64,000 nucleotides of DNA from an uncultured Methanolobus sp. (GCA_963675495.1 OY776215.1:2016001-2080000), one strand, 5' to 3'; counted from the first letter of the stretch, positions 28,300 to 32,852 are shown. Translations and numbers: made by a program. The notes: generated by a model not told the origin, from the letters alone.

Positions 28300-29334
28300 T
28301 TAGACATCCGCTTTTATAAGTTCCAATTTAAGGCTCTCAACCGGGTATCCTGAATACTGTCTTTCACTTATGTCGGTATCTTCTTCTACTATTTTGATCG
28401 AGAATCCTGCTTCCTTTATTTTGTTAAGGTAATCCTCTTTTAGCAAAGCTCCGCCAACACAGGCACAGATGAGTTCCTCATTATTCCTGTCCTCTTCCGT
28501 GAGATCCTTCAATAAGACCATATCAGATATGAACATCCTGCCACCTTTTCTGAGTACTCTGTATGCTTCCCTGAATACTCTGGATTTGTCAGGTGTAAGG
28601 TTTATCACGCAGTTGCTTATGATAACGTCAATGGAACCACTTTCAACGGGAAGGTCTTCTATATCTCCTTTCCTGAACTCTACATTTTTATATCCATACT
28701 TTTCAACATTATTTCTGGCCTTTGCAAGCATTTCATCTGTCATATCCACACCAATGACCTTTCCGCCATCGCCTACTTTTCTAACAGCCAGAAAACTGTC
28801 AAATCCTGCTCCTGAACCCAGGTCTAGAACAGTATCGCCTTTTTTGATCTCACCAAGTGCCGTAGGATTTCCACATCCAAGGCCAAGGTTTGCTTCAGAG
28901 AATGATTTTGTTTCTTCAGTGGAATATCCAATAGATGTTGCCACTTGTTCGTTCGTAAGGTCTCCGCAACATCCACATTGTGCAATACCCAATGCGATTT
29001 GACTGTAGCCTTCCTTCACGATAGTCTTCTTCGTTCCCGCATCCATTGAACTTCCCGGGCAGCACGAGTCCACTTTTTCGACTCCGCACTTTTCAAGTAT
29101 TTCTTTCATTTTATCATCCTTTATGCTGTAAATTACGTATCTTCCATCCTTTTCATATCTCAGTATACCTGCTTCACAGAGTATTTTCAAATGCCGGGAT
29201 ACGGTTGTCTGGTCTTTTCCTGTTGTTGTAGAGAAGTCGCAGGCACAGTGGTCCTGCTTCAAAAGGCAACCTACGATAATAAGTCTGGTTTTGTCTCCCA
29301 GGGCTTTGAAGAACTTGGCTTTGTTCTCTTGCAT
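28300..29334 (-). CDS. arsM: ArsR regulator fused to arsenite S-adenosylmethionine methyltransferase
   Basis: N-terminal [19 protein letters not shown]; C-terminal [32 protein letters not shown]. Confidence 0.92.
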
Positions 29335-29895: not shown

Positions 29896-30567
29896 ATGCT
29901 AAATAAGCAAGAGATTATTGCCAAGGCAAAAGAAGCTGTCATGAAATTTGATGACATGGCAGCAAAAGAAGTTGCTAAAAAAGCCCTTGATGCTGGTATT
30001 GATCCTGAGGAGCTAATTGAGCAAGGCTTCACAGCGGCGATGACAACTGTAGGTGAACAGTTTGCAGCAGGTAAATTATTCCTTCCACACGTTAGTGCAG
30101 CAGTCGATGCAATGCAGGCAGCAATTGAGATACTTTTACCTGAAATGGAAAAGACGGGTTCCACACCGAAATCCAGGGGTACAGTTGTTATTGGCACAAT
30201 TGAAGGTGATATCCATTCAATAGGAAAGGATATTGTTGTAACAGCGCTCAAGCTTGCAGGTTACAATGTTGTTGATCTTGGCAGGGATGTGCCTATAGAG
30301 AGCTATGTGAAAAAGGCAAAGGAAGTTAAAGCAGATGTGGTAGCCTCGTCAGCACTTATGACCATTACGATGATCAATCAGGGGCGTATAGAGGAGGAAC
30401 TCAAGGATGCAGGTTTCAGAAACAACGTCAAAACAATGGTTGGTGGTGCACCTGTAACTAAAGAGTGGGCTTACAATATTGGCGCCGACATCTATGCAGA
30501 GAATGCAGGAGATGCTGTGGACAAGATCACTGCATCGCTCAAGGATAAAAAAGTGTTGGATCTATAA
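29896..30567 (+). CDS. Methylotrophic corrinoid protein (MtbC/MttC-like)
   Basis: Helical cap domain, GTIEGDIHSIGK B12 motif, SALMT.TM, VGGAP. Confidence 0.93.
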   Translation: MLNKQEIIAKAKEAVMKFDDMAAKEVAKKALDAGIDPEELIEQGFTAAMTTVGEQFAAGKLFLPHVSAAVDAMQAAIEILLPEMEKTGSTPKSRGTVVIGTIEGDIHSIGKDIVVTALKLAGYNVVDLGRDVPIESYVKKAKEVKADVVASSALMTITMINQGRIEEELKDAGFRNNVKTMVGGAPVTKEWAYNIGADIYAENAGDAVDKITASLKDKKVLDL

Positions 30568-30667: not shown

Positions 30668-32104
30668 TTACATTCGTTTCCACCGGATGCCATCTTTCCT
30701 ATCCTCGATCACAATCCCCTTTTCTTTAAGTTCATCCCGGATTGCATCGGATTTTCCCCAGTCTTTCTCCTCACGCGCCTTTTCCCGGAGTCCTATCATT
30801 TCCATAATCTCTTCCTCTGACAGACCATTTGCAATATCTTTGGAAGCTGGTTTTTCATCCTCTGTAAATATTCCAAGCACTTCGTTGATCTCTGAATAGA
30901 ATTCCAGTATTTCTTCAAGTGATAAGCGGCCTGGTTTTTCACTGGAAATAATAGAATTGATCTTACGGGAGAATACAAAAATATTTCCAATTGCTTCTCT
31001 TGTGTTGAAATCATCATCCATGGAATTGATGAATGCATCCCTGGTTTTGCCTATTAGTTCTGAAAGGCCGTTATCATTTCCATCTTCATGGGCTTCTTTT
31101 AGGGCATGTTTTACGTTTGAGATCGTATTTAGTAACCTCTTTCTTGCCCTGCCAGCTTCTTCCAGGTTCTCCTCGCTGAAATCGATAGTACTCCTGTATT
31201 GTGTATAGGCTATGAAGAACCTTATAGTTCCGGGGGAGAATTTGCTAAGCACTTCTTTAATTGTGAAGAAATTACCAAGGGATTTCGACATTTTTTCTTT
31301 ATGGATGGTCAGAAACCCATTATGCAACCAGTACTTGCTGAATGGGTGCTTTGCGCTGCAGCTTTCAGACTGATGTATCTCTGCTTCATGATGCGGGAAA
31401 ATGAGGTCCATGCCTCCTCCGTGTATATCCAGTTGATCTGAACCGTATTTCATGGACATAACGGAACACTCGATGTGCCATCCCGGACGCCCCCATCCCC
31501 ATGGGCTTTCCCATCCAACTTCATTTTCAGAGACCGATTTCCAGAGTACAAAATCAAGCTGATACTTTTTATCGTCTTCTACATCAACCCTGTTCCCTGA
31601 GCCTTCTATAAGTCCTTCCACGGTCTGATGGCTCAGTATACCTATCTTGTCTTCAGATCTTGTCAGATTATAGTATACATTGCTTTTATGGGTTACGTAA
31701 GCTGTACCGTTTTCTATTAATGTTCCCACGGTTTCGATGATTTCTGGAATGTGTTCTGTGACTTTTGGCTGAGTGTCAGGAGCCAGCACTGAGAGAGTTT
31801 CCATGTCCTCTATGAAGGATTCAGTGAACTTGCGGGACAGGGCAAAGGCATCTTCTCCTGTTTCTCTTGCCCTGTTTATCAATTTATCATCGACATCTGT
31901 TATGTTGGAGATGTAATTGACAATGTATCCTCTGTAAATAAGGTATTTTCTTATAACATCAAAAGAAACGTAACTTCTTGCATGTCCTAGGTGGCAGTGG
32001 TCATATACTGTGGGGCCGCAAACATACATATTCACTTTTTTTCCGCGAAGGGGGATAAATTCCTCCAGACTTCTTGTCAAAGTATTGTATACTTTCAGTG
32101 TCAC
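30668..32104 (-). CDS. cysS: Cysteine--tRNA ligase
   Basis: CGPTVY, HLGH, PGWHIECS, HGGG.DL.FPHHE, KMSKS. Confidence 0.97.
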   Translation of the reverse strand: MTLKVYNTLTRSLEEFIPLRGKKVNMYVCGPTVYDHCHLGHARSYVSFDVIRKYLIYRGYIVNYISNITDVDDKLINRARETGEDAFALSRKFTESFIEDMETLSVLAPDTQPKVTEHIPEIIETVGTLIENGTAYVTHKSNVYYNLTRSEDKIGILSHQTVEGLIEGSGNRVDVEDDKKYQLDFVLWKSVSENEVGWESPWGWGRPGWHIECSVMSMKYGSDQLDIHGGGMDLIFPHHEAEIHQSESCSAKHPFSKYWLHNGFLTIHKEKMSKSLGNFFTIKEVLSKFSPGTIRFFIAYTQYRSTIDFSEENLEEAGRARKRLLNTISNVKHALKEAHEDGNDNGLSELIGKTRDAFINSMDDDFNTREAIGNIFVFSRKINSIISSEKPGRLSLEEILEFYSEINEVLGIFTEDEKPASKDIANGLSEEEIMEMIGLREKAREEKDWGKSDAIRDELKEKGIVIEDRKDGIRWKRM

Positions 32105-32128
32105 AGTAAAACTCCTTTATAAATGGGA

Positions 32129-32201
32129 TGCCGAGGGAGAGAATCGAACTCCCGAAAAACCGCTTTGCAGGCGGTCACATTAGCCACTCTGTCACCTCGG
32201 C
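32129..32201 (-). tRNA. tRNA-Cys(GCA), atypical
   Basis: Acceptor GCCGAGG/CCTCGGC, anticodon arm ACCGC-CTGCAAA-GCGGT, T arm GGGAG-TTCGATT-CTCTC. Confidence 0.92.
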
Positions 32202-32291
32202 ATAAAGGCGCAAAAAATCATTACAATTTATTATAGTCAGTTCACTCTATTTATCCGTTATTATTAATATAGGGTCAAGGGACAAGTTTGT

Positions 32292-32852
32292 TCAATCAAA
32301 TAAATAATTACTCCAGTCCACAGACCCCGGTCTGTAAGCCTGTTCGAGTTCTTCTGTTTCTCCTCTCTTAAGTCCCTTTATTATTTTCCCGATATCCTTG
32401 AAGGTTCCATCCACAGTTCCTCCTGTCGTATCAAGTTCAAAGACCTTCTCGCACCAGTCCACCGCTTCCGCCAGGATGATGTCCAAGGCTTCTGCTTCGA
32501 GGTTTTCCCGTACTTTTTCAACTGAATACTTCCTTTTTTCCAGTCTTCCTTTCAGTTTTGCAGGCGATGTCCTCAGTACAATAACGATATCAGCAATATG
32601 GTGCGAAAGATGGCTGTCAACTATGGTGACAGAATATGATTTATCCTGCAGTTCCAGAACCCTTTTATATACCATATCCATGTCAGCAACGACACAGTCC
32701 CTTTCAGTATCCACTTCGCAGTAGAGCTTCTCTTCTTTTATGAGCTCGTTAAGGTGGATTACCTGATATAACGGGTCATTTTCCATTAACCTTGTAACAG
32801 ATGTCTTTCCTGTTCCCGGTGTTCCTGTGATACCGATAAGCATGATTACCAA
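32292..32852 (-). CDS. Adenylate kinase, AK6/Fap7 family
   Basis: ITGTPGTGKT, DSHLSH, KVRENLEAE. Confidence 0.92.
   Translation of the reverse strand: MVIMLIGITGTPGTGKTSVTRLMENDPLYQVIHLNELIKEEKLYCEVDTERDCVVADMDMVYKRVLELQDKSYSVTIVDSHLSHHIADIVIVLRTSPAKLKGRLEKRKYSVEKVRENLEAEALDIILAEAVDWCEKVFELDTTGGTVDGTFKDIGKIIKGLKRGETEELEQAYRPGSVDWSNYLFD

Follow-up and report, generated by a model that had tools for sequence, protein, structure and literature searches.

Does a tRNA-Cys gene of unusual sequence, lying directly upstream of cysS (the gene for cysteine--tRNA ligase, CysRS), form with that enzyme a dedicated pair that works beside the SepRS/SepCysS route to Cys-tRNA? The question is raised by a locus on the minus strand of a 64,000-nt stretch of DNA from an uncultured Methanolobus sp., referred to here as the window, from whose first letter all coordinates are counted. 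We show below that the feature upstream of cysS is a true tRNA gene, encoding a second tRNA-Cys isoacceptor; its cloverleaf is ordinary (7-bp acceptor stem and 5-bp T stem, or 7/5), but the discriminator is A73 instead of U73. As genome comparison shows, this A73 tRNA and its cysS are inherited as one unit, and we favour, with moderate confidence, the view that the co-inherited CysRS and tRNA-Cys(A73) would pair preferentially or exclusively with each other, beside a SepRS/SepCysS/U73 system.

A second tRNA-Cys gene with A73

On the minus strand, Rfam model RF00005 aligned over its full length (model positions 1-71) with nucleotides 32129-32201, the last aligned base being the A at 32129; the score of 62.2 bits (E = 2.4e-13) is above the gathering score of 29. 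ARAGORN reported a tRNA-Cys(gca) at 32126-32202 on the same strand. The acceptor strands, GCCGAGG and CCTCGGC, make seven Watson-Crick pairs, with G1 at 32201 and C72 at 32130. Between them come U8 and stems of 3 bp (D arm, with G13.A22), 5 bp (anticodon arm) and 5 bp (T arm); the variable loop is UUUUC, 5 nt long. Among the marks of a cysteine isoacceptor, the GCA anticodon is present and is invariant in the 21 homologous copies described below, while U73 is lacking from all 21 and the G37 (m1G37) of archaeal tRNA-Cys is lacking from the window tRNA, which has A37. An earlier note, written from the sequence of the window, had described a non-canonical tRNA-Cys just upstream of cysS, whose discriminator would be A given a 7-bp acceptor stem and whose end would lie 25 nt before the cysS start. 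Both the gene and its discriminator were confirmed by the above searches, and the distance is correct when counted from C72, being 24 nt from A73.

Both routes to Cys-tRNA in one genome

The source genome (G000; G numbers are our handles for genomes and L numbers for loci or rows) is a single contig of 2.87 Mb, in which ARAGORN found 50 tRNA genes, including four for tRNA-Cys. The three tRNA-Cys genes other than that of the window are identical to one another and have U73, G37, A47 and A59, with no encoded CCA, whereas the window tRNA has A73, A37, U47 and U59. The position of one of these canonical genes was checked: it is flanked by the 23S and 5S genes in an operon with the order 16S-tRNA-Ala-23S-tRNA-Cys-5S (L272, G000:C1:1827500-1833700). 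At the remaining two, the distance from tRNA-Ala to tRNA-Cys is the same. SepRS (739 bits) and two SepCysS (592 and 404.9 bits) were identified in the genome as well, each scoring above its cut-off; together with cysS (534.9 bits), this means that both Cys-tRNA routes are present, in line with the earlier remark that Methanosarcinaceae can carry the two.

The positions that set the window tRNA apart have been assigned functions. According to passages of PMC9976931, CysRS and SepRS both depend mainly on U73 and the anticodon, SepRS in addition uses G37, A47 and A59 as minor elements specific to it, and m1G37 aids CysRS as well as SepRS in Methanosarcina mazei; a passage of PMC8762117 names U73 as a determinant for SepCysS also. 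U73 and A47 are absent throughout the relatives of the A73 tRNA. Such a loss of elements, though indirect evidence, would be as expected for a tRNA freed from serving SepRS/SepCysS.

Co-inheritance of the A73 tRNA and cysS

We surveyed 121 sampled Methanosarcinaceae genomes for the two genes. The source genome, 18 of its 19 congeners and one genome of another genus (G022) carry a Methanolobus-type cysS (61-100% identity), and the A73 tRNA (at least 88% identity) occurs in exactly those 20 genomes, always upstream of cysS and on the same strand. In other words, the two genes are adjacent in 20/20 genomes having either, while G113 (99% complete) has neither and possesses SepRS (735.6 bits) and a U73 tRNA-Cys; this is the co-inheritance looked for in a natural orthogonal synthetase/tRNA pair. 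The same gene order was seen at all 12 named Methanolobus/Methanosarcinaceae loci that reach upstream, the species of which overlap the main set and are not an independent count. Across the 20 genomes with the pair, the spacer between tRNA and cysS measures 22-57 nt; in the window, AAGGAG occurs in it at 32117-32112, 7 nt ahead of the GTG start. As the spacer offers no obvious room for a promoter of its own, the A73 tRNA and cysS are probably co-transcribed.

Alignment with other tRNA-Cys genes, one of the checks proposed in the earlier note, showed A73 in all 21 homologous copies of the 20 genomes, versus U73 in the three other tRNA-Cys genes of the source genome. Position 37 is less constant, being A in three copies (those of the source genome, of its nearest relative G003 and of the more distant G054) and G in the other 18. 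The A37 noted earlier is thus correct for the window tRNA and does not hold as a property of the group, within which this distribution shows it to be a derived, recurrent state.

Three further observations were made on these lineages. In a different genus of the family, a tRNA-Cys (L104, G110:C1:1744613-1744667 region) combines U73 with the loop CUGCAAC (A37, C38), so that A37 is not confined to the A73 lineage. Genome G097 has a second, unlinked A73 tRNA-Cys (L111, G097:C54:262968-263040), 88% identical to that of the window. Finally, two short open pieces at G016:C1:616156-616768 match residues 199-250 (81%) and 357-478 (60%) of the Methanolobus-type CysRS; the genus of G016 otherwise has a CysRS of 413 aa, 32% identical, and the pieces look like remnants of a lost Methanolobus-type cysS.

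The linked CysRS: CP1 motif and phylogeny

The product of cysS matches NCBIfam TIGR00435 over profile positions 1-465 of 466 (cut-off 340 bits) and aligns end to end with PDB entries 8qhp (E = 4.6e-136) and, from E. coli, 1li5/1u0b (E = 7.5e-123). It is of full length, including the C-terminal anticodon-binding part, and the class I motifs HxGH and KMSKS are both present in 20/20 linked cysS translations. In its CP1 motif, the part by which other CysRS read the acceptor end, two residues are inserted compared with Q164-A-G-A-R168 of E. coli; the insertion, specific to this clade, falls at E. coli residues 164-167. The resulting pattern, L-x-E-G-S-G-x-R (window residues 165-172), was found in 20/20 cysS linked to an A73 tRNA, while the EGSGxR insertion was seen in 0/66 other CysRS of a first set and in 0/11 Methanocellaceae CysRS, which read VGAR. 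In a passage of Mukai et al. 2017 (PMC5389517), a change of the CP1 motif M164-S-G-A167 is reported to have re-targeted the CysRS of D. tiedjei to another 1:72 pair; by residue numbering, the EGSGxR site would correspond to that motif.

The phylogeny of cysS, likewise proposed earlier as a check, was approached by a quick maximum likelihood tree of 105 rows (IQ-TREE, LG+G4, SH-aLRT support only), omitting 11 near-duplicate Methanobrevibacter rows, L156 (= L155), the short L143, L145 and L151, and the partial L012 and L046. The Methanolobus-type CysRS (14 rows), which is about 40% identical to the CysRS of other genera in the family, forms a clade of its own, sister to the CysRS of Methanocellaceae (family f12, 11 rows; SH-aLRT 99) and far from the Methanosarcina-type CysRS. 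With the f12 protein as query, the best named matches were Methanocella sp. and uncultured Methanocellaceae (90, 76 and 74% identity). The cysS of the window appears to be a bacterial-type gene, gained by the Methanolobus lineage separately from the cysS of Methanosarcina. An A73 tRNA-Cys was also read in 4/5 Methanocellaceae genomes examined, the fifth (G138) having an equal-scoring match.

tRNA-Cys genes linked to cysS in other archaea

Archaea often carry a tRNA-Cys gene immediately ahead of cysS, and several states of the discriminator were encountered: (i) in Methanobrevibacter (L047-L075), cysS is preceded at 17/17 loci, at a distance of about 30 nt, by a U73/G37 tRNA-Cys; (ii) two further linked loci (G290 and G350) have U73; (iii) a C73 tRNA-Cys precedes cysS at seven loci of four families (G338, G410, G149, G192, G447, G458 and G427; loci L128, L130, L132, L134, L135, L146 and L147, respectively); and (iv) at one locus (G176, L151/L189), G73 is followed by TCCA and the 5' flank of the tRNA has T at position -1, ARAGORN drawing an 8-bp stem and U-CCA. 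The existence of cysS-linked U73 tRNAs means that linkage alone does not require an odd discriminator. SepRS and separate U73 tRNA-Cys genes accompany the linked tRNA in G338, G410 and G149 and also in G176, which has three such U73 genes. At the C73 loci, the ATG of cysS is found 2-3 nt past the discriminator, so close that maturation of the tRNA 3' end would yield a leaderless cysS mRNA. In the CysRS tree, the linked C73 loci and those of Methanobrevibacter fall into one clade (support 97). No adjacent tRNA was present at the 6 Methanosarcina-type, 11 Methanocellaceae and 11 other archaeal loci checked.

Taken across these groups, the data allow a broader proposal, to which we give somewhat less than even weight. 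In SepRS-using methanogens, an acquired CysRS might generally travel together with a tRNA-Cys of its own, the two genes forming a cassette. The discriminator of that tRNA would have shifted from U73, becoming A in Methanolobus and Methanocellaceae, C in another four families and G in a further one, and natural routes to Cys-tRNA, insulated from each other but serving the same codons, would result; the 3' end of the C73 tRNAs would also set the leaderless cysS mRNA, and the repeated change of G37 to A37 in Methanolobus would be a further step away from SepRS.

A proposed dedicated pair and its alternatives

In the dedicated-pair model, a CysRS with an altered acceptor-end (CP1) motif would charge the A73 tRNA with free cysteine, while the three U73/G37/A47/A59 tRNA-Cys of the rRNA operons would be substrates of SepRS and SepCysS, both reported to need U73; two partly or fully insulated Cys-tRNA routes would then run for the same codons. 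Both the charging assignment and the insulation between the routes are what we infer from comparative data. The earlier note had proposed such a pair, with recognition through an altered discriminator or an extended acceptor stem. The adjacency and co-occurrence of the two genes, the presence of both routes, the loss of SepRS elements and the change in CP1 all speak for the pairing half of that proposal, while the extended stem is not supported, as described below.

A number of points weigh against this pairing. The 20 genomes represent essentially one acquisition, and their co-occurrence consequently shows co-inheritance and not function. Since m1G37 is reported, in the passages of PMC9976931 cited above, to aid CysRS too, A37 could lower charging by CysRS, and most of the A73 copies (18/21) have retained G37. 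In Methanocellaceae, the A73 tRNA lies 5-6 kb (G158, G166), 36 kb (G128) or 219 kb (G148) from cysS, and the lack of the EGSG insertion from all 11 CysRS of that family, beside A73 tRNAs, indicates that having an A73 partner does not depend on the insertion. CysRS may also charge the U73 tRNAs, or SepRS may tolerate A73. A search of public sequencing runs returned no RNA run holding the stretch.

The main rival is that the window tRNA is a redundant isoacceptor: a relaxed CysRS would charge A73 and U73 tRNAs alike, the linked gene would add a cysS-coupled dosage of tRNA, and A73 would be frozen without an insulating role. The U73 tRNAs linked to cysS in Methanobrevibacter, G290 and G350 are in keeping with this, as is the near-standard CP1 (VGAR) of the Methanocellaceae CysRS beside A73 tRNAs. 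Against these stand the invariance of A73 in all copies though positions 37, 59, 7:66 and 31:39 vary, the recurrence of a non-U73 discriminator (A, C or G) specifically in the cysS-linked tRNAs of genomes with SepRS and U73 tRNAs, and the role of U73 as a major CysRS determinant reported in passages of PMC9976931 and PMC5389517. On balance we regard redundancy as unlikely, though a serious competitor.

It was also considered whether the element is a tRNA-like processing or regulatory signal, at which RNase P/RNase Z would set the 5' end of the cysS mRNA with no part in decoding. The very short spacers, of 24 nt here and of 2-3 nt to the ATG at the C73 loci (leaderless mRNA), would suit such a function. 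But the anticodon loop CUGCA is invariant, the D and T loops show the conservation of tertiary positions seen in functional tRNAs, the Rfam score clearly exceeds the gathering score, and a processing role is in any case compatible with decoding. We therefore hold an exclusively non-decoding element to be very improbable.

A further alternative is the extended acceptor stem. According to this proposal, the mature 5' end would lie at -1 or -2, the stem would have 8 or 9 bp, and U74 or C75 would be the discriminator, CysRS still seeing a pyrimidine. That the flanks can pair, as pointed out in the earlier note, is correct (T32202-A32129, i.e. T-1:A73, and A32203-T32128, i.e. A-2:T74); the drawing by ARAGORN has 8 bp in the stem, then U and CC, and the window reads A-TCC-CA where the G73-type relative, G176, reads G-TCCA with T at -1. 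We aligned the 21 copies with 5-nt flanks, giving 20 distinct rows. Pairing reaches 99.3-100% in the four canonical helices, and at 5:68, 7:66 and 31:39 both partners of a pair have changed, as in a tRNA under selection; all five pairs of the T stem are made in every row, and the variable loop measures 5 nt. In contrast, the proposed extension is 72.5% paired, -1:73 being unpaired in 4/20 rows and -2:74 in 7/20. Base -1 is A in G022 and C in G109, G097a and G117, and G117 and G103 encode CCA immediately after A73.

The 5' flank of the window gene also resembles that of other tRNA genes in the source genome. T is found at -1 in 33/50 of them and in 20/30 of those having A73, and base -1 can pair with the discriminator in 31/50; the discriminator is followed by T in 22/50 and by C in 27/50, and CCA is encoded in 14 (counts from a T-loop-anchored script, in which tRNA-Pyl was mis-handled, with 6 acceptor and 2 T-stem pairs scored, yet kept within the 50). 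T at -1 is thus a general habit of the leaders, by which tRNA finders can be misled into drawing 8-bp stems. Neither conserved eighth and ninth pairs nor a shortened T stem, nor a 13-bp branch with a long variable arm, was observed; with five pairs retained in the T stem, an extended acceptor branch would reach 13-14 bp. Because the extra pairs are unconserved and an eighth pair is usual for A73 genes in this genome, we read the window tRNA as an ordinary 7/5 structure and regard an extended stem as a more improbable explanation still.

Lastly, a sequencing or assembly error at 32129 or 32165, the former of which the earlier note had named as fatal to its claim, can be dismissed with near certainty, since A73 is read in 21/21 copies, A37 is common to G000, G003 and G054, and the contigs of 4 public DNA runs (at most 2 samples of 1 study, possibly the assembly's own source) show no other letter over 32000-32300.

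Features of the locus and neighbouring genes

The features discussed above are compiled in Table 1. A TATA-like TATAATAAA was noticed by eye at 32235-32227, 26-34 nt before G1 of the tRNA. Upstream of the A73 tRNA are a putative kinase gene (PRK03839-like, below cut-off), trpG and trpE. Downstream of cysS lie, at 28300-29334 on the minus strand, a gene for an ArsR-type helix-turn-helix fused to an arsenite-methyltransferase-like domain (PRK11873, 312.6 bits) and, at 29896-30567 on the plus strand, one for a methyltransferase-cognate corrinoid protein (TIGR02370, 260.2 bits).

Table 1. Coordinates of the tRNA-cysS locus in the window.
Feature	Position	Strand	Basis
tRNA-Cys(GCA) isoacceptor, A73	32129-32201	-	Rfam RF00005 and ARAGORN
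5' flank bases -1 (T) and -2 (A), able to pair with A73 and T74; read as leader	32202-32203	-	Homologue alignment
Anticodon G34 C35 A36 (32168-32166) and A37 (32165)	32165-32168	-	Sequence reading
Discriminator A73, then TCCCA	32129	-	Sequence reading and Rfam alignment
tRNA-cysS spacer, 24 nt	32105-32128	-	Sequence reading
cysS, cysteine--tRNA ligase, 478 aa, GTG start	30668-32104	-	TIGR00435 and PDB alignments
CP1 motif L165-I-E-G-S-G-N-R172	31589-31612	-	Alignment to 1li5

Significance and comparison with known systems

If the pair is truly insulated, two parallel charging systems would exist for one amino acid and one codon set, with free cysteine feeding one route, phosphoserine the other, and the tRNA discriminator acting as the switch. 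This would bear on how CysRS displaces, or coexists with, the ancestral SepRS route, and genetic-code engineering would gain natural orthogonal pairs specific for cysteine. Since the unit consists of just two tightly linked genes, four recombinant components would suffice for a direct test of the question.

The core of our finding is already in print as a hypothesis and counts as known: a passage of Mukai et al. 2022 (PMC8762117), citing Perona, Rauch and Driggers 2018, records A73 tRNA-Cys in Methanolobus and Methanocella and suggests orthogonality between CysRS and SepRS. On the same authority (Perona 2018), it mentions G73 in some Methanospirillum/Methanoregula and C73 in some Methanobacterium. 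The published A73 tRNA-Cys is the same object as that of the window; we reproduce both genera and show a CP1 change. The adjacency, the strict co-occurrence, A37 and the sister position of the two CysRS clades are absent from those passages. Strict gene linkage and co-inheritance may thus add to the published record, although the Perona 2018 chapter may already contain these points. No printed statement of the tRNA-cysS adjacency was found in the full-text literature searched, most subscription journals being outside its scope, nor did the literature searched yield a report of a biochemical test of the A73 pair.

Within the same family, Methanosarcina mazei likewise possesses both routes (Hauenstein and Perona 2008, via passages of PMC9976931 and PMC8762117), and its SepRS and CysRS are reported there to favour different tRNA-Cys isoacceptors. 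According to the same passages, however, both M. mazei enzymes use U73 and m1G37, the preference residing in the tRNA core, whereas the window tRNA has A73 and A37; the Methanosarcina-type CysRS, moreover, is about 40% identical to that of the window, belongs to another clade and has no adjacent tRNA at 6/6 loci checked. With the extended-acceptor tRNAs (tRNA-His with G-1; tRNA-Sec of the 8/5 and 9/4 types; 8/4 and 9/3 allo-tRNAs), the sole likeness is that the flanks of this gene can pair; it differs in that the extra pairs are unconserved, the T stem is unshortened and a long variable arm is lacking.

A further parallel is offered by the selC* tRNA-Cys and CysRS* of Desulfobacterales, in which, according to passages of Mukai et al. 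2017 (PMC5389517), a second cysS is likewise coupled to an odd tRNA-Cys and specificity was traced to CP1 residues 164-167, CP1 being altered here too. The selC* tRNA-Cys is an 8/4 tRNA with A1:U72, often a UCA anticodon, and U73, while that of the window is a 7/5 tRNA with G1:C72, GCA and A73; CysRS* is without the anticodon-binding domain, unlike the full-length CysRS of the window. The archaeon HMET1, described in passages of PMC9499178, differs in enzyme class and amino acid, and orthogonality has there been demonstrated experimentally, as against sequence comparison here. Its two PylRS/tRNA-Pyl pairs nevertheless resemble the situation proposed for Methanolobus, in that two pairs serving one amino acid are told apart largely by the discriminator (G73 versus A73 in HMET1), along with a small change of loop length in the enzyme.

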